IMG/VR virus record: IMGVR_UViG_3300045454_000087
Direction: 5' to 3' (one strand)
From: a virus
Length of the DNA stretch: 35,207 nt
This document shows, in pieces, positions 813 through 27,979 of this stretch. Below the pieces are notes generated by a model. The model was not told the origin of the DNA. It did no database searches and saw only the letters and a list, made by a program, of their open reading frames with translations. Numbering within the stretch: position 1 is the stretch's first letter; every line of letters begins with the position of its first letter. The position numbers were made by a program, and so were the translations under genes.

Positions 813-870
813 TCCGGACTTAAAATCCGCCGGTGGTGACACCTTGTGGGTTCGATTCCCACCCGCCCCA
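813..870 (+). other. attP core: copy of the 3' portion of a tRNA-Leu(UAA) (anticodon loop to discriminator)
   Basis: Anticodon stem-loop CGGA-CTTAAAA-TCCG (anticodon TAA). Long variable arm GGTG-GTGA-CACC. T-arm GTGGG-TTCGATT-CCCAC. Acceptor 3' strand CCGCCCC plus discriminator A. No matching 5' acceptor or D-arm lies upstream, so this is a fragment. It sits directly upstream of the integrase. Confidence 0.7.
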
Positions 871-943
871 TATACAGCATATACAGGGTGTGAAAGAGCT
901 TCAGCCGGCACATATGGGAGTATCCCAGAAAGGCCGGTTTGTC

Positions 944-1843
944 ATGCAAAATAAACTACAGCGGATTTTTGTTAAAGACGTTGTCCAAAAATTCATGATG
1001 GCCAAAGAGTCAGAGGGGTTAGCTTCCGGATCTCTACGCTTTTATCATCAGAAACTGGAACCATTTATAGCATTTTGTGAAAAGTGTGGCTGCCCAGAAA
1101 TACTCAGTATTGAGGGGGATTTGATTCGGCAGTTCTTGCTGAGCTTGCATGAAAAGCATTCACCTGGCGGTGTTCATTCGTTTTTTCGTGCTGTCCATGC
1201 TCTGTTCACCTGGTATGATACTGAGTATGAGGGGGAGAATTGGCGCAACCCCATATCCCGAATCAAAGCTCCCAAAGTGCCTGAAGAAATATTGGACCCT
1301 GTTTCAGAAGATACGGTTCGAGCGTTAATAAGAACTTGTAAGGATGATTTTTACGGCGTTCGTGATAAAGCAATTTTGTTATTGCTGGACAACACCGGAT
1401 TACGCGCCTCAGAACTATTAAATCTTGATCTTGACTCTGTAGATTTACCTTTATCGGTTTTATATGTTGAAAGGGGAAAGGGCGGCCATCCACGGGCAAT
1501 AGATTTTAATCGAGAGGTGAAACGTTCCCTGCGATCATATTTAAAACAACGGTTATCAACTGACACTTACGCTTTTTTCATTAATCGATATGGTGAAAGA
1601 TTGACGTATGACAATTTACGCAATATGCTAGCGCGGCGAGCCAAATGTGCAGGTATTTTTCCACCTACATTGCATTCATTTAGGCGCAAACATGCGCTTG
1701 ATTTGCATCGAGCCGGAGAATCATTATTGACTATTCAACATCGATTAGGGCACAGGACTGACCGGGTATTGAAGAGATATATAAAACTTACTCGTGAAGA
1801 TATGATAAAAAGTGCCCGCAGATTGAAAAAGGCTATCCGATAA
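944..1843 (+). CDS. int: Tyrosine recombinase / phage integrase (XerC/D-like)
   Basis: Catalytic-domain signature: TGLRASELLNL (Arg I), HSFRRKHA (H-x-x-R) and LGHRTDRVLKRY (His...Tyr). N-terminal SAM-like core-binding region. The ORF is open from 833, but that extension only reads through the tRNA fragment. ATG 944 (or 914) is the likely start. Confidence 0.9.
   Translation: MQNKLQRIFVKDVVQKFMMAKESEGLASGSLRFYHQKLEPFIAFCEKCGCPEILSIEGDLIRQFLLSLHEKHSPGGVHSFFRAVHALFTWYDTEYEGENWRNPISRIKAPKVPEEILDPVSEDTVRALIRTCKDDFYGVRDKAILLLLDNTGLRASELLNLDLDSVDLPLSVLYVERGKGGHPRAIDFNREVKRSLRSYLKQRLSTDTYAFFINRYGERLTYDNLRNMLARRAKCAGIFPPTLHSFRRKHALDLHRAGESLLTIQHRLGHRTDRVLKRYIKLTREDMIKSARRLKKAIR
1100..1110. repeat. 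Iterated palindrome ATACTSAGTAT, perfect copy
   Basis: ATACTCAGTAT followed by TGAGGGGGAT. It lies inside int and is read as ILSIEG. Confidence 0.95.
1218..1228. repeat. Iterated palindrome ATACTSAGTAT, perfect copy
   Basis: ATACTGAGTAT followed by GAGGGGGAG. It lies inside int in a different codon phase and is read as DTEYEGE. Confidence 0.95.
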
Positions 1844-13073: not shown

Positions 13074-13967
13074 TTAGCTGGCCTTGATGTGTGAGTAAAT
13101 GCCCTTCACCTTGTTGTCATAGACAAAGGCATCATGGTACAGGCGATATTGCACCTTGTAAGCATCCGCGTCCTGATTCTCATCAGGCGTAAAGATTTTC
13201 AGTGCAGCCAGCTTGGTTGCTTGCAGCACAGCGCTGGGATGCAGCAACAGGAAGTTGATATCGCGTCCGGTTGTCGCCGTCTTAGTGTATCCACCGGCTG
13301 TACTGGTAGCGCCGGCATCCAAAGTGATACCTTTGTAGAATCGAGTCTGCGGAACCATAATGATAGGCGTATTGTCCAACGCCAGTACCCGGCGATCAAC
13401 ACTGGTCTCAGATGCCAGCGAACGTGTAACGGCTGCCTTGATAAAACTGTCCACGGTATCAGACACAAACAGCAGGCGCCCTTCTGCAGGAACTTCATTT
13501 GCGTTCAACACTGCATGCGCAGCATCAATAGCCGCCAGCACGGTACCGCTGGTCAACGTTGTCGGAGTACCGACCTCTGTGATGCCCGACCAGGTTGCAT
13601 ATCTTGAGAAGCGATAGGCATCCACTTCCGGCGCTACCTGGGTACGGATGAACTCGCCCGCCAGGGAACCAAAAGCCATCCCCAGCGTTTCGTCATCATC
13701 CATGCGGTCGATAGAAAATTCACGCCCACGGGATGCTCCGAGAGTCATCGTTTCCCAAACCCCGGTCACATCACCGACCGGATAACCGCCAGAGCGGGAA
13801 TAGTTACCCAGGCCAACAGTGGATATCTTAAAGACTCTGACCACCGCAGCCCCGGCAAAATCAACCGGTTTCGTCGGCGCATCCATGCGAGCCGTCAAGC
13901 TCTCACGTCTGTAGATTTCATCCAGAATCGGCTGAAATTTGGTTACAAGATCAATTGTATTTGCCAT
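13074..13967 (-). CDS. Major capsid protein
   Basis: 297 aa, directly downstream of the scaffold gene. Motifs GNYSRSGGYPVGDV...FSIDRMDDDET are typical of this capsid family. Confidence 0.75.
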   Translation of the reverse strand: MANTIDLVTKFQPILDEIYRRESLTARMDAPTKPVDFAGAAVVRVFKISTVGLGNYSRSGGYPVGDVTGVWETMTLGASRGREFSIDRMDDDETLGMAFGSLAGEFIRTQVAPEVDAYRFSRYATWSGITEVGTPTTLTSGTVLAAIDAAHAVLNANEVPAEGRLLFVSDTVDSFIKAAVTRSLASETSVDRRVLALDNTPIIMVPQTRFYKGITLDAGATSTAGGYTKTATTGRDINFLLLHPSAVLQATKLAALKIFTPDENQDADAYKVQYRLYHDAFVYDNKVKGIYSHIKAS

Positions 13968-13970
13968 GTG

Positions 13971-14528
13971 TTATTTCTCCTCGGTCGGCAATCCAGCCGC
14001 TTTCCGGGCAGCCAGAATTACCGGATCATTGATTACGGATTTATTGTTTCCCCCAATCACAATCTTGGGGGGGTTTTCGCCACTATCGAACAGGAAATCA
14101 TTCTCGGATTGGATTTTTTCGAGTTGGTCTTTCAGTCCGGAGATCGAGCCATCCTCAGCCAGTTTCAACAGCTCAGTATTGAGCAGAGCACGTACAGCCT
14201 TCACATTTTTGGCTTTCGCGCCGGTCAGAGCGCCGGTCAATGCATGTTCGAAATGGAGCTGCTCAAGCTGCTTTTTGGCATCGATCTGTACCTGCTCAAA
14301 TTTAGCTTTGTACTCGTCGGCGCTTTTCTTAACGCCTTCGATATCCATGCCCTTGAAGTTCTCGATCTGCTTATTGGCTTCTTCGAGCTGCTTTTTCAGC
14401 GTGTCGGCTTCGGTTTTTACTGCGGTCAGATCCGTTTTGTGCTTCTCGATATCTTTACCATGTTCAGCCATGATTTTATCGATCTGCTCAGCAGTTAAAC
14501 CCAACTTTTCCAAATCTTCCCTTTTCAT
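13971..14528 (-). CDS. Scaffolding protein (GP20-like)
   Basis: 185 aa, highly charged and helical (MKREDLEKLGLTAEQIDKIMAEHGKDIEKHK...). It lies immediately upstream of the capsid gene. Confidence 0.75.
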   Translation of the reverse strand: MKREDLEKLGLTAEQIDKIMAEHGKDIEKHKTDLTAVKTEADTLKKQLEEANKQIENFKGMDIEGVKKSADEYKAKFEQVQIDAKKQLEQLHFEHALTGALTGAKAKNVKAVRALLNTELLKLAEDGSISGLKDQLEKIQSENDFLFDSGENPPKIVIGGNNKSVINDPVILAARKAAGLPTEEK

Positions 14529-14713
14529 TTCCTATTCCTTTCGCTATCGCACTACGTTGCTTTTACGTGTCACGAACACATGGTGTTGGCTAGCGTACGT
14601 TCTAACCCAACGATTAAAAAAAGACCGCTCGATGTAATAGCAAACAAAAAATCATTTGCGACTACACCGAGCGGCCAACTTCGGTATCAGGCCGTAAGTA
14701 TTCAATTACACAC

Positions 14714-14741
14714 ATTATAACAATATCACTGCAAAATGCAA
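14714..14741 (-). promoter_or_regulatory. Near-consensus sigma70-type promoter for scaffold/capsid operon
   Basis: Minus strand: TTGCAT (14741-14736), a 16-nt spacer, then TGT-TATAAT (extended -10; TATAAT = 14719-14714). It leaves a leader of about 175 nt before ATG 14528. Confidence 0.55.
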
Positions 14742-14884
14742 GAAATTTAATGTGTTCGATTTTGATTAATTGCTTCTTGAAATGTAAATCGATCTGTGCT
14801 AAAATAAAAACGTCCTGAGGTGGGAAGGCACCCCCCACGCCCTTGAAAGAGGAGAGATGCTGACGTAGTGCCAGTGGACGGGAC

Positions 14885-14909
14885 AAAAGACCGGAAACGG
14901 TCTTTTTTT
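14885..14909. terminator. Bidirectional intrinsic terminator at the end of the MuF gene
   Basis: AAAAGACCG-GAAA-CGGTCTTTTTTT, a perfect hairpin with an A-run on one side and a T-run on the other. It overlaps stop codon 14908-14910. A second hairpin (GTGGG...CCCAC, followed by TTTTTATTTT on the minus strand) lies at about 14795-14850. Confidence 0.7.
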
Positions 14910-17085
14910 ATTTGATCTTGAGATATTTAGATTTAAGTGTTCCATCGGCATAAAATAAATCTTTCCAGTTTGCTTCGTGAATCGTAGTAATTTGATGAAA
15001 ACCACTTGGTGTTTTGCTCAAGCTAACCGCCACAATCATGAACCGGTCTTCTATTTTCCCACCAGGATATAACTCGGAAACAAGCGTGATTGAATTATAA
15101 CCATCTCGTCTTTGACGAATCGTCTTCTCAATAAAATTGGGCGATTGTATCGCTTTTACAAGTCCTTCTTGATTCTTTTCGAGCCATTCCAATCGATATC
15201 TATGTTTCGGATCGGAAAGATGACTCGCGGAAAACTTATTATAAATAACCGGTTTTGGTGTAATAAATTTCTTCCCCGGTTCCATTTCTGAAAAATACTT
15301 AGAAACATCTCCCAAATCTGTAACCTGTTGATATTCCCCTGACCGAAAATCAATCTTCGGAGCTTTTATTGACACATTTGGATGATAGCCAATTCTTTCC
15401 CGTTCATACTGCCTTCCCAACCTCGTTTGTTTCGTGAAATCCCGCATTCTGGCTTGCCACTCTCGCACCTTGCCCCACTCATACTCAGTATCAAGCTGCG
15501 CCGCCTTCAATGCCCCTTCTTGCCGTTTCCAGTAACGAATCTTTCGCTCAATTTCTCGTTGTTGCTGCGTTGCCTCATAAACGCTAATTTCCTGACCATT
15601 ATAGGTAACGGTTTTGTTCACATAACTTTCAAGCTCAGCTTTTGAGTAAGCATTCTCAGAAATACCCTCGAAAAATGGATAGAAACTATGACGGCAATTA
15701 TGGATTACAATGTCATTAGCAAAGTACCAGCCACCTTCTGTTTCGAGGTTATAAACATGGACAAAAGAACCTTGCGTAGATTTCCGCTCGATGAAAATGA
15801 TGTTATCCAACTCTACAATTCCGGGGTATCCACTACAACTATCAAGGAGAAATACGGGTGTTCCCTGAAAGCGGGAATTGAAGCAATCCCGCAAAAAGCC
15901 ATCTGGAAATATAACATCGACCTCGCCATTGGAAACGTCGCCGTGGAAGTAACCGGCAGAGGAAGGAAACCGGACTATATTCCCATTTACAGAGAGAGAA
16001 TCAAATATATCTTGAATTCTGGTTTCTCCCTGGTCTATATTTGGGCTTCCACCGCTTATCCGGTCAAAGTAGGAGCGGCAGATTACATTATCTCCTTTTG
16101 TCAGCAGACCAGCCGCGATCCATCCCTTGTTGGTCAATATAGGGTGATTGGGTGTACAGGAAAGCTCCTTGCCTCCGGCAGTGTGCAGGATAATGATTTC
16201 ACCGGAATATTCACGGCGATACCCGGCACATATAGCCGGACCTGACACAACCGTTTCGCCAACGACACAGTTCCAACCCATCAACCCTTCACCGCTGCCA
16301 TAACCCGTTTTCTCGATAAAACTCGGATATTCAGCATGAGTGCCTGACCTGGAATAGACTTTTCCCTGCCACCCCTCGTGATTGGCCGGCCCCGTTCCAG
16401 TATTACGAGCGCCGATGTGAGCAGATACAGCAACCAGATCGATCCCCATTTCATCAGCACGCGCTTCCTGGAGCTTTCCAACTGTTTGATTGACTCCGGT
16501 CAATACAGTTCGCCGCATGGCAACATCCAAATGGTCTTGACGACCACTAAAATGGATCACCGGTAATCCTTTGTCAGCCACATCCTTAACTGCCTGACGA
16601 ATTGCCGTATTGTAATCAAAAGCCCCACTGGTTATTTGCATATACGCCAGGTCAGCAGCATCAATAAAAGCATTTTGTCCGCTAATTGCCGTAGTCATGG
16701 TCAAGTTTTTCATAATGCCCTGGGTTTTATTCAATCCAGCAGCCAAAACTTGTTTCATCGCCGGGGATAAATTGAGAGGAATAGGCTGAAGGCCGGCAGC
16801 CTTATAAATTCCATCGTCAAATGTCATCGCTTTTACACCGGCTTTTTCAAACATGGCTTGTAATTCCCCACTTGTTTTGCCAGTCAAAATCGTCAGCTCA
16901 GATAAAATGTTTTCGTATAACTTGCCGCTCTCCGATAGCCGTTGCATCTGCCAGGCCGCCGTAGAACTGGCAAAATCCAACTTTCCCAACCGCCGCGCAA
17001 TATCTATAATGACCGAATCAGCATACTCAGTATAAAGGGTAATCAGGCGTTGCGGCAGCGCATCGAGCTGGTCGGAGGTGAGCAT
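14908..17085 (-). CDS. Head morphogenesis protein (SPP1 gp7 / Mu F family) interrupted by an intein, with a long C-terminal extension
   Basis: ATG overlaps the portal stop (TAATG). MuF-type motifs ...SAHIGARNTG...HEGWQGKVY... and GLMGWN|C...HN|CRHSFYPF are present. Removing residues 273-463 restores GWNCRHSFYPF. About 260 aa follow the MuF core. Confidence 0.85.
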   Translation of the reverse strand: MLTSDQLDALPQRLITLYTEYADSVIIDIARRLGKLDFASSTAAWQMQRLSESGKLYENILSELTILTGKTSGELQAMFEKAGVKAMTFDDGIYKAAGLQPIPLNLSPAMKQVLAAGLNKTQGIMKNLTMTTAISGQNAFIDAADLAYMQITSGAFDYNTAIRQAVKDVADKGLPVIHFSGRQDHLDVAMRRTVLTGVNQTVGKLQEARADEMGIDLVAVSAHIGARNTGTGPANHEGWQGKVYSRSGTHAEYPSFIEKTGYGSGEGLMGWNCVVGETVVSGPAICAGYRREYSGEIIILHTAGGKELSCTPNHPILTNKGWIAAGLLTKGDNVICRSYFDRISGGSPNIDQGETRIQDIFDSLSVNGNIVRFPSSAGYFHGDVSNGEVDVIFPDGFLRDCFNSRFQGTPVFLLDSCSGYPGIVELDNIIFIERKSTQGSFVHVYNLETEGGWYFANDIVIHNCRHSFYPFFEGISENAYSKAELESYVNKTVTYNGQEISVYEATQQQREIERKIRYWKRQEGALKAAQLDTEYEWGKVREWQARMRDFTKQTRLGRQYERERIGYHPNVSIKAPKIDFRSGEYQQVTDLGDVSKYFSEMEPGKKFITPKPVIYNKFSASHLSDPKHRYRLEWLEKNQEGLVKAIQSPNFIEKTIRQRRDGYNSITLVSELYPGGKIEDRFMIVAVSLSKTPSGFHQITTIHEANWKDLFYADGTLKSKYLKIK
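15481..15491. repeat. Iterated palindrome ATACTSAGTAT, perfect copy
   Basis: ATACTCAGTAT, with minus-strand flank GAGTGGGGC. It lies in the MuF C-terminal extension (DTEYEWG). Confidence 0.95.
15697..16269 (-). mobile_element. Intein (191 aa) in the MuF NCRH motif
   Basis: Cys1 (TGT 16269-16267) in CVVGETVV. Block B is SCTPNHPILT (T-x-x-H). The C-terminus is FVHVYNLETEGGWYFANDIVIHN, followed by +1 Cys (15696-15694). A linker of about 90 aa has no LAGLIDADG or HNH motif. Confidence 0.85.
15757..16245 (+). CDS. Candidate antisense homing endonuclease nested in the intein (HTH + Vsr/DUF559-like PD-(D/E)xK)
   Basis: The ORF is open from 15688-16245. The internal ATG 15757 has GAGG 8 nt upstream. 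HTH-like: DVIQLYNSGVSTTTIKEKYGCSLKAGIEAI. Nuclease-like: YNIDLAIGNVAVEVTGRGRK...YRERIKYILNSGFSLVYIW (compare DUF559: D-x8-10-E-x-DG...R-x3-L-x3-G-[FWY]-x-[VL]-x-x-[FI]-W). The recognisable core (15790-16044) falls exactly inside the intein linker (15792-16074). Confidence 0.4.
   Translation: MDKRTLRRFPLDENDVIQLYNSGVSTTTIKEKYGCSLKAGIEAIPQKAIWKYNIDLAIGNVAVEVTGRGRKPDYIPIYRERIKYILNSGFSLVYIWASTAYPVKVGAADYIISFCQQTSRDPSLVGQYRVIGCTGKLLASGSVQDNDFTGIFTAIPGTYSRT
17023..17033. repeat. Iterated palindrome ATACTSAGTAT, perfect copy
   Basis: ATACTCAGTAT followed by AAAGGGT. It lies in the MuF N-terminus (YTEYA). Confidence 0.95.
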
Positions 17086-18491
17086 TACACACCACGAAAT
17101 AGATCGGCAACTTGAGGTTGTTCAGCCTGAATCTCTGCTATTTTTGCTTTAGCAGTTATTTCATCCTCATCCATATTACGCATTCGAAATTCGATTTTGC
17201 TCATCAACCCTTGCTGCACCAATCTCATGTCCTGTTGAAACCGGGCATCTTTGTCGATGATTACACTGTCATCAAAGGCAAAAATGGTTGAATATGACCC
17301 ACGTGGCGCTAGATTGCCCAAAGTCGCCCATATATCCATTGCCCAAAGCAATTGTTCTAACGCATTCTGAAGCGTCTTCTGAGTATCAACGATCGTTGCA
17401 TATGTGCGCTGGCGAGATATCTTGATTTCGGTTGCAGTCTTATCAATCTGTTGTGGATCACTCAAAGTGCCATAAGCAAGCCCGCAAGTGTATTCGATCC
17501 GTTTTAGAATTGCATCCAGGCCGGCTAAATAATTTTGTTCTCGGATCGTAGGCGTCCATTCGTGAAACATTTCTTCATCAGAAACCTGGCCACCTTGATT
17601 TAGCGTTCGATATAAGCGCTTGTTGGGAAGAATAGGCTTGCCTTTTTCATCTTTACCAAAAGCCAGCACGTCTACATACAATGCCCGATTACCGCTTTCG
17701 AACTCCCACAATAAATCAGACCATAATCCGTCTGCTTGTTTGATTAAGTCAATGGCACGAGCATAACAGGACACACCTAACGGGCTGGTTGGATCGATAT
17801 TGTTCGCCTGTGGAAACCGGAAATAAGCAAACAACGGTTGATCGACGCCCGTAATCATTGCCTCTGGTTGAATATCTGCCCATTCCGCAACCTCACCAAG
17901 CGGAATTTGTACCCCCAAAGTATCCCGTGAGGTGCTTCTGAATGCCATATTTCTAATTTCGCATCCGGAATCGGTCATGGCATGAGATTCCAGACGCGTA
18001 TAATACCTATTACCTGCTATCTTTTGATCGACAAACACACACGCGGTGATGTTGCCATTGGAATCAAATCTCACCGGGTAAAACATATCAGCCTGAACGA
18101 AATCGACAGCGATCTGGTTGCCATCGATATATGGTTTAAGCATCAACCCACCTTTAGCGCAACCATATTCCACCTGCTGCCGCAATTTAGGCAATACTCG
18201 TTCAAACTGGAGCGCTAAATAGTCTGCTCGGGGGCTGCCTTCGATGGTCACATCCATTTCAATAGTAACCGCCCGCGCAATTTCACCGGCGATGGCCGCT
18301 GCCAGGCTCAAACTTTTCACATGGGTATCCAGCCAGGGCGCTTTATTTTCGTACATCGCCGACCACAATTGCAATGCCTCAGCCATAACTGACGACACTG
18401 CAACATCAACTTTTAATGCGGTTTTCACAGTTGACTGAGTAAACATCTTTTTGATGACCTCCCGAATGAAATCTAAAATCCTCTGGAACAT
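17085..18491 (-). CDS. Portal protein (SPP1 gp6-like)
   Basis: 468 aa, between the terminase and MuF genes. ATG lies 3 nt after the terminase stop. Confidence 0.8.
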   Translation of the reverse strand: MFQRILDFIREVIKKMFTQSTVKTALKVDVAVSSVMAEALQLWSAMYENKAPWLDTHVKSLSLAAAIAGEIARAVTIEMDVTIEGSPRADYLALQFERVLPKLRQQVEYGCAKGGLMLKPYIDGNQIAVDFVQADMFYPVRFDSNGNITACVFVDQKIAGNRYYTRLESHAMTDSGCEIRNMAFRSTSRDTLGVQIPLGEVAEWADIQPEAMITGVDQPLFAYFRFPQANNIDPTSPLGVSCYARAIDLIKQADGLWSDLLWEFESGNRALYVDVLAFGKDEKGKPILPNKRLYRTLNQGGQVSDEEMFHEWTPTIREQNYLAGLDAILKRIEYTCGLAYGTLSDPQQIDKTATEIKISRQRTYATIVDTQKTLQNALEQLLWAMDIWATLGNLAPRGSYSTIFAFDDSVIIDKDARFQQDMRLVQQGLMSKIEFRMRNMDEDEITAKAKIAEIQAEQPQVADLFRGV

Positions 18492-18493
18492 GA

Positions 18494-20278
18494 TTATGAT
18501 CCTCTTCGTCGCCAGATAAGATTTGTGGCGTACCTGGTTGCATCAATGAAGTGGTTATCCCGATCTGGATATTCACTGATGAAATTGCCATCCGGATCCT
18601 GCTCCAGCTCATAGTTGATAAACTCTTCAGCAGCATACGGACAACGCTCATGATCAATCACAATCGCAGCCAAAGATTGCAGCCACTTCATGGAATATTT
18701 AACACTCTCAGGACCTTTCTCAGCGCCGCGGCAGGTTAGGCCATACTCACGATAATCAGCTACACTCTTTGGTTCAGCCGAATCCGAAATGATCAAGTCC
18801 GATGGTAATACATGCTTATCGCTGATCAACATATCGGCTGTTTGACGATTAGACGCCTTAAGCGCACGCAGCTCATCATAGATATACAGCGTCAACCTGG
18901 CTGCATCATAATGGCATTTCACCCATGCATACGGATCCGGATAATAACCCCAGTCGTTACCCATTAGAACATGGTCAAACTGAGAGATTTCATCATCAGT
19001 AATTTTGCGGAATTGGACATTTTCGAAGACCAAACCACCAGTACCATTAGCAATTCCCAGGTATTCGTGCTCGTAGGCTTTAGGATTGATCACCTTCAAA
19101 TGATCAGCTTCTTCCAAGAAGACTTTACCCAACCATTCAGGAGGAACTTCCAAATAGCAGCTCTGATGCTGATACTGAGTATTCTTGGGGATTTTTACGT
19201 ACTTATTTGCCCAATTCGCTGCTGTCCGTGGCGGGTTGAATGATTTGAAAATATAGGCCAGGTCTCCGCCACGAATTACGCTTTGCTCGATCTTGCGAAT
19301 TGCCTCTTCACCATGAAATTGATCGAGTTCTTCGAACCATAGGATTCCGATATAGCCAAATGCCGGCTTTATTGATTTAATCTTCCCTGGATCATCCGCG
19401 CCTCGAAAATAGATTTTCTGGCCAGTAGGCAAGTATGTTATTTCCAACGGCGAAAGCGTGCACTTGAACTCATTATCTAACCCCAATTCGCTGATAGACC
19501 ATAGAAATTGGGAATAAACACTGTCTTTGAGCGTATTGGCCACTTGACGAGCTGCCAGCGCATGCATCTCTGGATTATTTTTCAACAAATAGAGAATAAC
19601 CAGTGAGACAAATGTTGATTTTGTCGAACCTCGCCCGCCATAAAATAGATACTCAGTATGTTGATGGTCTCGGATATCCCGATACGCGTTGAGAAATTGC
19701 GGAGAAATCAAATCAGCGGGAAGAGAAAACGAAGCTGCGCCAGCAGCCAGCCGTTCTTCATCGGTGAAAATCCGCATGTGTTTTCCGAGCATCATCATCG
19801 CTGTTTGTGGATCGTGCAATCCCAAACTGACAGAATTCGTTTTTCCTGTCGATGTGGCAACTCGCTTGACCAGGTGCCCGCGCTCTTTCAACGCCCGTTC
19901 GTTGATATAAACCATACGCCCACCTTTTTCGGTCTCCACAAAGTCACTGATACTAGCTCGTCCCATTTGTGAAAGCCTGGCAAGCAATTCTGCCTCCCCC
20001 ATTATCTGTTCACGCCACTTCTTATCAGCCTGATCGATGACCCATTTATCCCAGGCTTCAGCGCGAGGCCACCAATCATCTTCGTCGGCCATTCGCCGCC
20101 AGGACCCAGGAGCATTCTTGCCTGGTATTTTTCCCTGCTGCGCCCGCACCAGTTTGTATGCACCATTCAATGTCCGTCCAGGTCCCATCAACCGGAAAAT
20201 ATTGAACCACGAATGCCTGACGTATGCCTCCCCATCTCGCCGATCCCAAGGTTGACGCTCATCAATATCGCGTGACAT
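18494..20278 (-). CDS. Terminase: small-subunit-like N-terminal domain fused to PBSX-type large subunit
   Basis: Walker A is FYGGRGSTKST. Downstream nuclease-type acidic motifs are present. The N-terminal 190 aa or so carry TerS-like motifs (FRLMGPGRTLNGAYKLV...WWPRAEAWDKW; SLGLHDPQTAMMMLGKHMRIF). No separate TerS ORF lies between the endolysin and this gene. ATG 20278 is used (the ORF is open from TTG 20287). Confidence 0.85.
   Translation of the reverse strand: MSRDIDERQPWDRRDGEAYVRHSWFNIFRLMGPGRTLNGAYKLVRAQQGKIPGKNAPGSWRRMADEDDWWPRAEAWDKWVIDQADKKWREQIMGEAELLARLSQMGRASISDFVETEKGGRMVYINERALKERGHLVKRVATSTGKTNSVSLGLHDPQTAMMMLGKHMRIFTDEERLAAGAASFSLPADLISPQFLNAYRDIRDHQHTEYLFYGGRGSTKSTFVSLVILYLLKNNPEMHALAARQVANTLKDSVYSQFLWSISELGLDNEFKCTLSPLEITYLPTGQKIYFRGADDPGKIKSIKPAFGYIGILWFEELDQFHGEEAIRKIEQSVIRGGDLAYIFKSFNPPRTAANWANKYVKIPKNTQYQHQSCYLEVPPEWLGKVFLEEADHLKVINPKAYEHEYLGIANGTGGLVFENVQFRKITDDEISQFDHVLMGNDWGYYPDPYAWVKCHYDAARLTLYIYDELRALKASNRQTADMLISDKHVLPSDLIISDSAEPKSVADYREYGLTCRGAEKGPESVKYSMKWLQSLAAIVIDHERCPYAAEEFINYELEQDPDGNFISEYPDRDNHFIDATRYATNLIWRRRGS
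19172..19182. repeat. Iterated palindrome ATACTSAGTAT, perfect copy
   Basis: ATACTGAGTAT followed by TCTTGGGGA. It lies in the terminase (NTQYQ). Confidence 0.95.
19649..19659. repeat. Iterated palindrome ATACTSAGTAT, perfect copy
   Basis: ATACTCAGTAT in the terminase, immediately before Walker A (HTEYLFYGGRGSTKS). Confidence 0.95.
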
Positions 20279-20290
20279 GGCAATCAATCA

Positions 20291-21268: not shown

Positions 21269-21635
21269 TTTCCTCCCAATCGCCTGGCTCCCAACATGGT
21301 TTCGCGTTCATCTCACCAATTTGCCGGATCAAAATTCCAATCCCATTCATCAAATCAAGCACACGATGCGCATACCGGGACAACTGCCGCTGCAATCGCT
21401 TAATTTCGCGGTCCTGCCTGGTTACATGCTGTTCAAGTTCCGCTAAACGCGTTTTCAGTGGTTCTAGTAACGATACGGCAGCATCAGCGATCGCATCTGC
21501 AGCATCCGCTTTATTTTTTACCCGAGTGGACAGGTATACAAGCAACCCACCAAAAATTGCGCCGACCGCCCCAATGATCATTTCGATGATTTTTTCTGAC
21601 ATAGATTTACCCGTAGGAGCGTATATCATGTTCAT
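21252..21635 (-). CDS. Lysis-associated membrane protein (N-terminal TM + coiled coil; holin partner or spanin-like)
   Basis: TM helix IIEMIIGAVGAIFGGLLVYL followed by a heptad-like segment LEPLKTRLAELEQHVTRQDREIKRLQRQL. Confidence 0.45.
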   Translation of the reverse strand: MNMIYAPTGKSMSEKIIEMIIGAVGAIFGGLLVYLSTRVKNKADAADAIADAAVSLLEPLKTRLAELEQHVTRQDREIKRLQRQLSRYAHRVLDLMNGIGILIRQIGEMNAKPCWEPGDWEENDDTG

Positions 21636-21969
21636 TCACCTCCCGCTGCCTGGCCGGGAAATATGTGCCGATCAATTGGTGTATGTAACTTGCTCCCATA
21701 CCAATCGATACTCCGGTAACAATCACTCCAAACGCGGTAGGTTTGACCGGTGTTTCAACCACCTGGCCGGCCAGATAGATCACATCAAATTGATAGACCC
21801 ATGCGCCAGCAACTCCGGCTGCTACAGCCAAATAGACCAGCGCCCATTTATACGGCTGCAATACCGGCACATGATCAACAATCCGGCCAAACAGCGCCTC
21901 TACCAGCGTTTCAACCAGAAAGGCCAGCAGCAAAATAACGCCCAAAGTGCCCATAACTTCTCCAAACAT
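21607..21969 (-). CDS. Holin
   Basis: 120 aa with three hydrophobic helices and a charged C-terminus. RBS GAGAGGAG. It is the first gene after a terminator and lies upstream of the endolysin. Confidence 0.6.
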   Translation of the reverse strand: MFGEVMGTLGVILLLAFLVETLVEALFGRIVDHVPVLQPYKWALVYLAVAAGVAGAWVYQFDVIYLAGQVVETPVKPTAFGVIVTGVSIGMGASYIHQLIGTYFPARQREVNEHDIRSYG

Positions 21970-21983
21970 ATCGATCTCCTCTC

Positions 21984-22037
21984 AAAAGAAAATAAGAATG
22001 CCCGGCACATGCCTGAACGTCTCAAGCGTGTGCCGGG
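21984..22037 (-). terminator. Intrinsic terminator separating the replication operon from the lysis/late operon
   Basis: Minus strand: CCCGGCACA-(19 nt)-TGTGCCGGG (9-bp stem) followed by CATTCTTATTTTCTTTT. Confidence 0.5.
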
Positions 22038-22102
22038 CGGTCAACTTCGGCTCTGTCACATTGTGACGACCGTAGAATCACCCCCACGTGTGTGGGGAAA
22101 AC

Positions 22103-22345
22103 TTATTCAGTTGCACCTATTCTAGCACACCTTATTCGATAAATCAATTCATGCAAACGATAATCGCGGCTGTCGAAGTGGAACAGCTTGCGACATACCC
22201 CACAAACACCATGCACATAAGCAACATCGCTAACACCAAGTCGCAGCCATACCCGCTGACGAACACGGATCAATTGGCCTATTTCTGAGCCACACTCACT
22301 ACATCTCAAACTGGAATCCAATGCTAGCAAATTCTCATCACTCAA
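22103..22345 (-). CDS. Small zinc-ribbon protein
   Basis: CSECGSEIG...CGVCRKLF (two CxxC pairs). 80 aa. Confidence 0.5.
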   Translation of the reverse strand: MSDENLLALDSSLRCSECGSEIGQLIRVRQRVWLRLGVSDVAYVHGVCGVCRKLFHFDSRDYRLHELIYRIRCARIGATE

Positions 22346-26417: not shown

Positions 26418-27167
26418 TTACCTTTGCATGACGATGGTTGTTGTGTACTTTTTCATCGAATTTACGTAGCATTCACGCGAGCAGTATGACTGGTACTGAC
26501 GTTTTCGCGGCAGCCGAACGCCGCATCTACGGCAGACACTAGTCAGTACTGCGTAGCCCAACTCGCGATTGATCCGATCGACATCCGCCATGCCGCTGCG
26601 TTCGCGCTTATGCTCTGCGATTCGCTGCCGGTTGGCTTGGCGGCAGGAACGCCTATACTCCGCGAGCCGCTGCCGGTTGGCTTGGCGGCAGGAACGCCTA
26701 TACTCCGCGAGCCGCTGCCGGTTGGCTTGGCGGCAGGAACGCCTATACTCCGCGAGCCGCTGCCGGTTGGCTTGGCGGTAGGAACGCCTATACTCCGCGA
26801 TTCGCTGCCGGTTGGCCTGGTAGTAGGAGCGCTTATGCTCCGCGATTCGCTGCCGGTTGGCTTGGCGGTAGGAACGCATATACTCCGCGATTCGCTGCCG
26901 GTTGGCTTGGTAGTAGGAACGCATATACTCCGCGAGCCGCTGCCGGTTGGCTTGGTAGTAGGAACGCATATACTCCGCGAGCCGCTGCCGGTTGGCTTGG
27001 TAGTAGGAACGCATATACTCCGCGAGCCGCTGCCGGTTGGCTTGGCGGCAGGAACGCCTATACTCCGCGAGCCGCCGTTTGTTACACTCTGCGCATCGTT
27101 TCGGTCGAGGTCCATATTTGCTCGATTGGTCAAACTCTACGCCGCAATCAATACAGATCACACCCAC
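26418..27167 (-). CDS. Zinc-ribbon protein with about 10 tandem 15-aa repeats (RLAEYxRSxxQANRQ)
   Basis: N-terminal CIDCG...CAECN and C-terminal CRRCG...CSRECY flank a basic helical repeat array encoded by 45-bp repeats. Confidence 0.7.
   Translation of the reverse strand: MGVICIDCGVEFDQSSKYGPRPKRCAECNKRRLAEYRRSCRQANRQRLAEYMRSYYQANRQRLAEYMRSYYQANRQRLAEYMRSYYQANRQRIAEYMRSYRQANRQRIAEHKRSYYQANRQRIAEYRRSYRQANRQRLAEYRRSCRQANRQRLAEYRRSCRQANRQRLAEYRRSCRQANRQRIAEHKRERSGMADVDRINRELGYAVLTSVCRRCGVRLPRKRQYQSYCSRECYVNSMKKYTTTIVMQR
26613..27062. repeat. Tandem repeat, 45 bp x 10 (plus partial units at both ends), in frame within CDS 26418-27167
   Basis: Units start at 26613, 26658, 26703, 26748, 26793, 26838, 26883, 26928, 26973 and 27018. 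They are near-identical. Three variable blocks (gagccg/gattcg; cggcag/cggtag/tagtag; cct/cat) occur in a mosaic pattern. Confidence 0.95.
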
Positions 27168-27979
27168 CTCTCCACCAATTTATTAGCGCCAGCCGGCCAG
27201 CTAGTGACGAGAGTTTGGTCGCCACGAACAATATCATTCCACGCCAGTATTTTTTCAACTGTAAAGCGTCCCATTTTTTCTTGACCGTTTGCCATGATGT
27301 AGCCACAACGTAGTGGAGATCGATAACCATATCTGGTTACAGGCTGATCCTCGATCTGCTGTTTTCCCAAACTTGCAGCCATAGCCAATCCCGCATCATA
27401 TTTTCTTCGCATTTGCGGATCGCTCAGTGTTTGATAGGCATAATTGATTTGTTGAAATTGTTGCGTCGCATCGATTTCATGGCATACATCTGGATGCCAT
27501 TGTCTGGCAAGCCTGCGAAAGGCGCTCTTTAACTCATCAGCGCTGGCTTGATGACTAATCCCTAAAACGGCATATAAGGTTATTTCTTGGGTTGGTGTGG
27601 GTGGACCGGCTTCGAACCAGTCTCGTAAAACTGTTTCGGGGAAGATAACAGACCACTGTCCATCAACCATCCCATATGCCGAGCGCGTGCCATCACCTCG
27701 ATCTTTTGTGCTGCCCACGTAACGCACTTCAAGCAGCCTGATTTCAGATTTGCTAATCGCAGCGTTGATTTGAGGGAGATGTACCGATTCCCCTAAATAT
27801 TTCTGGCACCAGTTCACTAAGTAGTGTCCGTGCTTGGGGTCGATCAACCAGGCTTTGCGGTTTGCATCCCACCGGCGATCAGTATTTGGCAATGATTTAA
27901 TGAGAGCTACCAATGTCGAATTGTATGGGCTATAAAAAACGTATACTCCTTGATCAATGCTAATTTGAACACTACTCAT
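27158..27979 (-). CDS. J-domain (DnaJ-like) protein with unknown N- and C-terminal domains
   Basis: Central LYAVLGISHQASADELKSAFRRLARQWHPDV...QQINYAYQTLSDPQMRRKYD, with an intact HPD tripeptide. Confidence 0.75.
   Translation of the reverse strand: MSSVQISIDQGVYVFYSPYNSTLVALIKSLPNTDRRWDANRKAWLIDPKHGHYLVNWCQKYLGESVHLPQINAAISKSEIRLLEVRYVGSTKDRGDGTRSAYGMVDGQWSVIFPETVLRDWFEAGPPTPTQEITLYAVLGISHQASADELKSAFRRLARQWHPDVCHEIDATQQFQQINYAYQTLSDPQMRRKYDAGLAMAASLGKQQIEDQPVTRYGYRSPLRCGYIMANGQEKMGRFTVEKILAWNDIVRGDQTLVTSWPAGANKLVERWV

Follow-up and report, generated by a model that had tools for sequence, protein, structure and literature searches.

An internally deleted intein in a phage MuF gene and the remnant of a Vsr-like endonuclease gene on its opposite strand

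The viral DNA recorded as IMGVR_UViG_3300045454_000087 in IMG/VR (35,207 nucleotides [nt]; "the window" below means this whole stretch) encodes on its minus strand a MuF-type minor capsid/head morphogenesis protein (14908-17085; a precursor of 725 amino acids [aa]). The gene is host to an intein, and almost the entire length of that intein is also open on the plus strand. The question raised by this locus is whether the plus-strand open reading frame (ORF) is a gene and, if so, whether it is an intact one. A first-pass annotation, made from the sequence alone, had proposed that the ORF is a homing endonuclease gene with a helix-turn-helix (HTH) segment and a Vsr/DUF559-like nuclease, and that the intein linker is an open read-through of the reverse complement of this gene. 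The domains of homologous proteins, their predicted fold, and a flip in codon periodicity all agree with the read-through; as for the gene, it is real in the family to which the ORF belongs, but the window copy is not intact, with 136 codons gone. We conclude, with a probability of about 0.88, that the element is a mobile intein at the MuF site, that the antisense Vsr-like endonuclease gene is real, and that the window carries a deleted and probably dead member of the family.

The intein was recognized from hallmarks read straight from the sequence. It is a class-1 intein of 191 codons (15697-16269, minus strand), with the junctions and motifs GWN|C1VVGE, TPNH in block B, and VIHN|C+1RH, and Cys1 is encoded at 16267-16269. 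The N-terminal Cys, the block B T-x-x-H, the terminal His-Asn and the +1 Cys nucleophile expected of class 1 are all present. The match of the window intein to the Pfam Intein_splicing model (PF14890; E 8e-7, 29.4 bits) lies below the gathering score of 35.8, and two of four full-length relative inteins score 36-37 bits. The intein is inserted in frame at a conserved site of a host protein that is also found without it (…SCRC… in the intein-less MuF gene of the locus L037). The splicing motifs and the 725-aa ORF of the window are all intact, and the intein is probably splicing-competent, as far as its motifs allow a prediction. With the sense intein as query, a homologue search yielded four proteins, too few for a distribution of intein lengths.

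Three parts can be told apart along the minus strand. The Hint N-terminal subdomain (16090-16269) comprises sense codons 1-60 with blocks A and B, and the C-terminal blocks F and G (…SFVHVYNLETEGGWYFANDIVIHN) occupy 15697-15765. Between them, the linker (15766-16089) is a stop-free sense read-through of the endonuclease remnant that has no domain of its own. In relatives with inteins of about 325 aa, Pfam matches in the sense frame were to the Hint model only, at both ends, in keeping with the first-pass observation that the sense linker lacks an endonuclease motif.

On the plus strand, the maximal ORF (15688-16245, 185 aa) shares its codon boundaries with the intein, as had been noted at first pass. 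Its first ATG is the reverse complement of a His codon in the C-extein, and it ends in a TGA that lies opposite the sense Ser9 codon (TCA). An internal ATG at 15757, complementary to the block F His codon, opens the endonuclease-remnant ORF proper (15757-16245, 162 aa, beginning MDKRTLRR), and several homologues begin at the same Met. The GAGG reported upstream of this ATG is indeed there (15745-15748, plus strand, 8 nt 5' of the ATG); it resembles a Shine-Dalgarno site, is formed by the block F sense Asn-Leu codons, and has a counterpart (GAG, GGAG, or AAGG) at the matching position in most relatives. The Leu codon of the block F sequence YNL is CTC in 11 of 14 loci, compared to a background of 14% (binomial P 1e-7), and the GAG of the Shine-Dalgarno-like site is therefore supplied. 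Downstream of the start lie helices 1-2 of a truncated, HTH_7-like first HTH (15799-15873), an in-frame deletion junction between 15873 and 15874, a remnant of a Vsr/DUF559/MTES_1575-like nuclease core without its first helix (15886-16044; IPQKA…NIDL…AVEVTGRGRK…LVYIW), and a C-terminal helix and hairpin tail (16045-16245) that is dual-coded with the Hint N-terminal subdomain from 16090 onward.

An open antisense frame alone is unremarkable, because the window holds five further antisense ORFs of 157-232 aa that are equally open. These control ORFs (13939-14637, 21526-22125, 26610-27284, 33254-33802 and 13134-13607, all on the plus strand) stand opposite structural or replication genes and gave no credible Pfam match; the first-pass annotation had cautioned that the genome contains spurious antisense ORFs, and these five look spurious to us as well. 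The ORF opposite the intein might likewise be open by chance, and it too has no significant Pfam or PDB match when searched by itself. What sets it apart from the controls, none of which matched any family, is its homologues and the selection acting on them.

When we searched a large protein collection for homologues, 16 proteins (P0001-P0016) were returned, all of about 300-320 aa and 53-72% identical to the window ORF (62% for P0005), and a profile search widened the family to 84 proteins. The ~300-aa homologues match HTH_7 (best E 2.9e-10), Sigma70_r4_2, and DUF433 above the gathering score, and matches to GerE and HTH_40 are significant yet below that score in the single homologue tabulated. 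A profile of the homologues also found the tandem-HTH protein 2lvs (E 9e-7). The HTH-like segment picked out at first pass aligns with the HTH_7 region of the homologues, but it comprises only helices 1-2 of the first HTH (HTH1), cut off at the deletion junction. For the nuclease half, MTES_1575 is matched weakly in 6 of 17 close homologues (E 1.3e-3) and DUF559 in one (E 0.028); many distant family members carry precomputed PF18741 or PF04480 assignments, and several bear the JGI name "very-short-patch-repair endonuclease." We modeled the full-length homologue P0005 with AlphaFold2, and the mean predicted local distance difference test score (pLDDT) was 75 overall and 80-92 across the nuclease and tail. 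In a Foldseek search of this model against the PDB, the top match was the catalytic domain of I-Bth0305I (3r3p; probability 1.0, TMt 0.57-0.58), followed by 2lvs and the DUF559 protein 3hrl (probability 0.93), and the best matches in BFVD were phage Vsr/DUF559 endonucleases. The catalytic domain of P0005, as modeled, has a Vsr-type fold. It is on the family-level PF18741 and PF04480 matches and on the Foldseek matches to 3r3p and 3hrl that we base the naming of the nuclease core remnant in the window.

We then examined the DNA around the relatives on 6 homologue-encoding contigs, 23 viral contigs, and 7 genome contigs. The opposite strand was open over the whole match in every fetched locus, and the two frames were codon-aligned in 29 of the 30 loci from the viral and genome scans, L034 being scored as off-register. 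The opposite-strand ORF encodes a MuF-type protein with an intein whose ends read N|C… and …[HS]N|C-[RGT]. Altogether, in about 40 related loci the endonuclease is antisense within a MuF intein, save for one free-standing case. A tblastn search of cultured phages with P0005 matched 124 records, including phages of Salmonella (62), Pseudomonas (15), Gordonia (11), Klebsiella (8), and Escherichia (6), as well as Vibrio and Acinetobacter phages and Aaphi23. Escherichia phage vB-Eco-KMB36, Salmonella phage vB_SenS_SE1, Aaphi23, and Gordonia phage Vivi2 are examples that carry the full-length form. Among the 30 matches listed, 27 were annotated, and the feature underlying the match was the gene for a minor head, MuF, or unnamed protein. 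The four cultured phages that we inspected, L041 (OR525703.1, 2784-4754), L042 (NC_004827.1, Aaphi23p32), L043 (NC_069151.1, PF623_gp55), and L044 (MH976506.1, gp15), all have the match antisense within the annotated minor head/MuF gene, the endonuclease itself being unannotated.

Codon boundaries common to both strands in 29 of 30 loci could also be the mark of an invertible cassette: inversion by whole codons would turn the endonuclease segment into an in-frame fusion, and the antisense state would then be one phase of a switch or an artefact of assembly. We dropped this idea, since flanking inverted repeats were absent or inconsistent in the window, L006, and L002. The orientation is moreover antisense in every independent locus, complete cultured phage genomes included; the endonuclease has a conserved ATG and Shine-Dalgarno site of its own; and the codon-aligned register is the one in which both strands are most easily held open, as just TTA, CTA, and TCA need be avoided. 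We give an invertible segment next to no credence.

The free-standing relative, P0085, is one of two tandem endonuclease paralogues in L037 (L037:2321-3690, plus strand), both of which have the canonical E-I-F-G-G-x-H motif. The pair is convergent with an intein-less MuF gene (L037:3695-4543, minus strand), whose stop lies 2 nt beyond that of P0085, the nearer paralogue. This MuF gene ends …HVSCRCSYRIVIQ, just after the usual intein insertion site. Such a convergent layout agrees with the published proposal of an intein invaded by an endonuclease gene that had stood on its own; it is possibly the ancestral arrangement, and as such offers a reason for the antisense orientation. A second unusual locus, L039, was left unused. 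Its 462-aa product P0068 (L039:1579-2967, plus strand) is a fusion of an N-terminal NAD-ligase adenylation domain with the endonuclease's C-terminal half, and the MuF intein opposite (L039:2245-3540, minus strand) has N-terminal blocks and no C-terminal blocks, so that the pair looks like a chimeric assembly or a rearrangement.

To compare selection on the two strands, we used 14 diverged full-length inteins, for which sense-guided and antisense-guided alignments were identical. Within the Hint blocks (sense codons 1-60 and 301-328), the third sense position varies most (0.41-0.55, compared to 0.17-0.31 for position 1). Across the linker (sense codons 61-300) the pattern is reversed: sense position 1, which is antisense position 3, is the most variable (0.38-0.68, compared to 0.25-0.50 for position 3) and reaches a diversity of at least 0.51 in 11 of 12 blocks. 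In a cumulative curve, the pattern switches at codons 60/61 and 304/305, sense-frame periodicity resuming past the latter in blocks F and G. Wilcoxon tests gave P values of 1e-7 (Hint codons) and 8e-23 (linker codons), which are indicative only, given nearly saturated synonymous sites and the common ancestry of the loci; the robust part of these tests is the contrast between regions of the same alignment. Nei-Gojobori proportions gave a ratio of nonsynonymous to synonymous change (pN/pS) over the linker of 0.95 in the sense frame and 0.45 in the antisense frame, with aa identities of 34% and 55%, respectively. Over the Hint blocks, pN/pS was 0.35-0.44 in the sense frame (0.29-0.44 when the N-terminal subdomain is taken by itself) and 0.72-0.87 in the antisense frame, with 68% and 51-53% identity. 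The same reversal was seen in a broader set of 16 sequences at ~30% identity that includes Escherichia coli, Salmonella, Aggregatibacter, and Gordonia phages.

Stop-codon avoidance gave a further view of the same region. TTA, CTA, and TCA are the codons whose complements are stops, and we counted them among Leu and Ser codons, taking the expectation from extein usage. Over the linker, none of 467 Leu/Ser codons in the endonuclease frame is of this kind (about 105 expected). Outside the overlap (sense codons 1-9 and 305-328), they make up 23 of 64. Given the phase flip, the pN/pS values, and this avoidance, we conclude that, in the full-length relatives, purifying selection maintains the linker as an antisense gene and that the sense frame over it is selected just to remain open. 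A survey of homologous MuF inteins was among the checks suggested at first pass, and it came out in favor of the gene, as the antisense frame is open in all of them and constrained over the linker. The alternative of a chance open frame must now also accommodate a family of 84 homologues, with HTH matches above threshold and a Vsr-like fold, a free-standing relative, and an occurrence spread over many studies and cultured phages that excludes a single contaminated assembly; we consider its probability negligible.

The antisense constraint may extend beyond the linker. Sense codons 10-60, which belong to the Hint N-terminal subdomain, contain none of the three codons among 106 Leu/Ser codons (about 24 expected), and the endonuclease ORF is thus held open through Hint block B. 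The first-pass annotation had described the ends of the ORF that overlap the Hint blocks as featureless; at the end opposite the Hint N-terminal subdomain this does not hold, as the C-terminal helix and hairpin are modeled confidently in P0005 (pLDDT 85-92). Over the corresponding part of the window (16090-16245), the synonymous proportion (pS) of the sense frame in relatives is 0.50, compared to 0.57-0.74 in other parts of Hint, and this reduced diversity hints at true dual coding. On such a reading, the last ~40-50 endonuclease codons, modeled as helix plus hairpin, would run antisense through block B, the Shine-Dalgarno site and start codon of the endonuclease would be made of block F codons, and endonuclease and intein would be interlocked by selection on both strands at once. 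We regard the odds of this as even. If it is true, neither gene could be lost or moved without the other, which would explain their joint spread through MuF genes in phages of Proteobacteria, Actinobacteria, Firmicutes, and Chloroflexi. The pair apparently goes without annotation in over 100 genomes of cultured phages.

The window copy departs from this family architecture by a deletion. It aligns to both ends of the ~300-aa homologues with a central gap of 137 columns (alignment A1, columns 63-199) and, compared to full-length relatives, lacks sense-codon columns 134-269, that is, 136 codons, in frame. In P0005 numbering, the deletion runs from about residue 61 to 197 and removes the third (recognition) helix of HTH1, all of HTH2, a helical connector, and helix 185-196, with which the MTES_1575-like core begins; the intein is shortened from ~325 to 191 aa. 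An identical deletion is present in the IMG/VR contig L022, which is 97% identical to the window. Their differences fall mostly in one 27-nt patch (16054-16080) with ~11 changes, a stretch on which the sense frame imposes no constraint. One outcome is a G-to-D replacement in L022 at an endonuclease position where Gly is invariant in all other copies. The patch points to either a relaxation of constraint or a short tract of conversion. The retained part deviates from the family within the range of intact members, and the deletion is thus probably recent.

Could the shortened protein of 162-185 aa still be an active homing endonuclease, or otherwise a functional nuclease, as the first-pass annotation implied? 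The ORF, its ATG, and the GAGG are intact, the invariant residues D…EVTGRGRK…K are kept, the 6 of 63 conserved positions that deviate are within the family range, and the same deleted form recurs in a second sample, L022. Set against this are the loss of the HTH1 recognition helix, HTH2, the connector, and the helix that starts the core; the invariant-Gly replacement and clustered changes in L022, which suggest that constraint is relaxed in the deleted lineage; and the absence of the short architecture among the 84 homologues, fragments at contig ends excepted. We therefore think it improbable that the window protein is active. From the 136-codon deletion alone, we judge the endonuclease most likely inactive, and the intein most likely on its way to becoming a mini-intein. 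For annotation, we would describe the locus as a MuF gene whose intein can probably still splice, with a truncated endonuclease pseudogene antisense to it.

Several results weigh against our overall interpretation of a real antisense gene with a probably dead copy in the window, in addition to the near-saturation of synonymous sites mentioned above. The window ORF alone found no significant match in Pfam (best RE_ApaLI, E 0.17), the PDB sequences, or PHROGs, so that the profile search advised at first pass fails for the translation itself and succeeds through its homologues, which match HTH families above threshold. The nuclease Pfam matches of the close homologues are all below the gathering score. 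The nuclease motif of the window clade, an invariant D…E-V-T-G-R-x-R-K, departs from the canonical E-x-[DF]-G-x-x-H; the relatives L037 and L039 have E-I/V-F-G-G-x-[WF]-H. No point-mutational decay is evident in the retained part of the window copy, in which 6 of 63 conserved positions deviate, compared to 1-9 in intact relatives. Finally, a promoter scan found no sigma-70-like site 5' of the ATG at 15757, the only plus-strand sites being within the antisense ORF itself; this negative carries little weight for the host of this phage.

With these points weighed, the following picture of the element seems to us the most plausible. It would be a mobile intein at the N|C-R-[HC] site of MuF/minor-capsid genes whose homing endonuclease is not an in-frame domain but the product of a gene on the other strand. 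In intact relatives, translation of the antisense strand would yield a protein of ~300 aa, in which two HTH domains are combined with a Vsr-like nuclease of the I-Bth0305I type, from a start codon and a Shine-Dalgarno site that appear to lie inside the Hint block F codons. During co-infection, this endonuclease would presumably cut intein-less MuF alleles, and recombinational repair would then copy the intein together with the endonuclease gene into the cut allele. On the sense strand, the gene reads as filler without stops, placed where Hint usually carries an endonuclease insertion, and protein splicing would remove it. In the window copy, a single in-frame deletion has shortened the filler and truncated the antisense gene, with presumable loss of endonuclease activity, and the splicing motifs are kept.

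The surroundings of the element are those of a temperate siphovirus-type module. Almost every gene of the window is on the minus strand; the module includes an integrase (833-1843, plus strand), VapE-like and primase genes, a large terminase (18494-20287, minus strand, 597 aa), an SPP1-like portal (17085-18491), and a scaffold (13971-14528). The MuF gene lies between portal and scaffold, and its 725-aa product matches Pfam Phage_min_cap2 (E 1e-102). The terminase ORF has an N-terminal extension of ~200 aa, of which residues 87-178 weakly resemble Terminase_2 (E 8e-4), and it may be a fusion of small and large terminase. The ~380-nt stretch between scaffold and MuF (14529-14907) has no long minus-strand ORF, and a comparable gap exists in the relatives L001 and L002. 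A megablast search of the window MuF gene against phages gave zero matches. The window exteins are nearest (~40% aa identity) to intein-less MuF genes of Clostridioides difficile, Faecalibacterium, and human-gut phages, to which an extein-only query aligns unbroken across residue 272/273. The intein is thus sporadic in the phage lineage of the window, as its nearest extein relatives lack one.

For the annotation of phage genomes, the lesson of the family is that a genuine gene can lie behind a long antisense ORF in a structural gene, and the codon-periodicity flip offers a simple test of this. The class of inteins, argued for so far mainly from predicted structures, now has evidence from selection as well, and the presence of an apparently unannotated homologue in well-studied phages of E. 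coli, Salmonella, Klebsiella, and Pseudomonas indicates that the class extends far beyond actinobacteriophages. The features of interest are those of the family, the window copy itself being a product of decay.

The antisense arrangement, of which the first-pass annotation knew no example, is not new. Antisense LAGLIDADG endonucleases in inteins had been reported earlier (Gorbalenya 1998; Gogarten 2002; Synechocystis DnaX; cited in bioRxiv 10.1101/2025.01.02.630785), and the same preprint (Gosselin, Arsenault and Gogarten, version 2025-10-20) describes inteins with an "anti-sense VSR-like HEN" for MuF-like minor capsid genes. According to the preprint, minor capsid protein inteins carry non-canonical endonucleases only, and a table lists Malisha gp5, Vivi2 gp14, Angelicage gp15, Affeca gp15, and Fosterous gp12 as "minor capsid, MuF-like, class 1, VSR -1 ORF." In tblastn, P0005 matches these five phages with 29-36% identity (E 1e-29 to 1e-37). 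Since our Gordonia matches are phages listed in the preprint, we assign the window element to the same family as the published inteins. In the parts of the preprint that we consulted, we did not come across the phase flip and pN/pS contrast, the avoidance of stop codons on two strands, the Shine-Dalgarno site and ATG within block F, a tail dual-coded with block B, a free-standing relative convergent with MuF, or the wide occurrence beyond actinophages.

The actinophage inteins of Gosselin et al. and the window element have the same type of host gene, an N|C-R-[CH] site, class-1 chemistry, and a codon-aligned antisense ORF, and their endonucleases are homologous, with the same best structural relatives (Vsr and 3R3P). 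In contrast, the phage of the window has its relatives among Firmicutes phages, with the extein nearest to those of C. difficile and Faecalibacterium phages, and the window copy, lacking 136 codons, is decayed and has no full-length HTH and nuclease ORF. The antisense LAGLIDADG inteins likewise place an endonuclease opposite a contiguous intein whose sense frame reads through, but they have the LAGLIDADG fold and other host genes, whereas the window family is of the Vsr-like PD-(D/E)xK type. In the fractured genes of Dassa et al. 2009 (PMC2677866), Vsr-like endonuclease genes lie between split-intein halves, so that, as here, such an endonuclease is a separate gene at the block B/F boundary; there, however, host gene and intein are in two ORFs and are trans-spliced, whereas the sense frame of the window family is stop-free and contiguous. 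I-Bth0305I, the founding Vsr-like homing endonuclease (Taylor et al. 2011, PMC3239194; PDB 3r3p), is also a homing endonuclease of a phage in which a DNA-binding region at the N-terminus precedes a Vsr-like catalytic domain at the C-terminus, but it is encoded on the sense strand, in a group I intron in recA, has a sequence identity of ~16%, and differs from the window clade in the motif E-V-T-G-R-x-R-K of the latter. Lastly, the mini-inteins and decaying endonuclease domains of the homing cycle (Goddard and Burt 1999, as presented in a citing paper) resemble the window copy in an in-frame internal deletion that leaves the splicing blocks intact, with the difference that the sequence deleted from the window was coded on the other strand. 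The window element is, in these terms, an internally deleted and decayed member of a recently described kind of intein.

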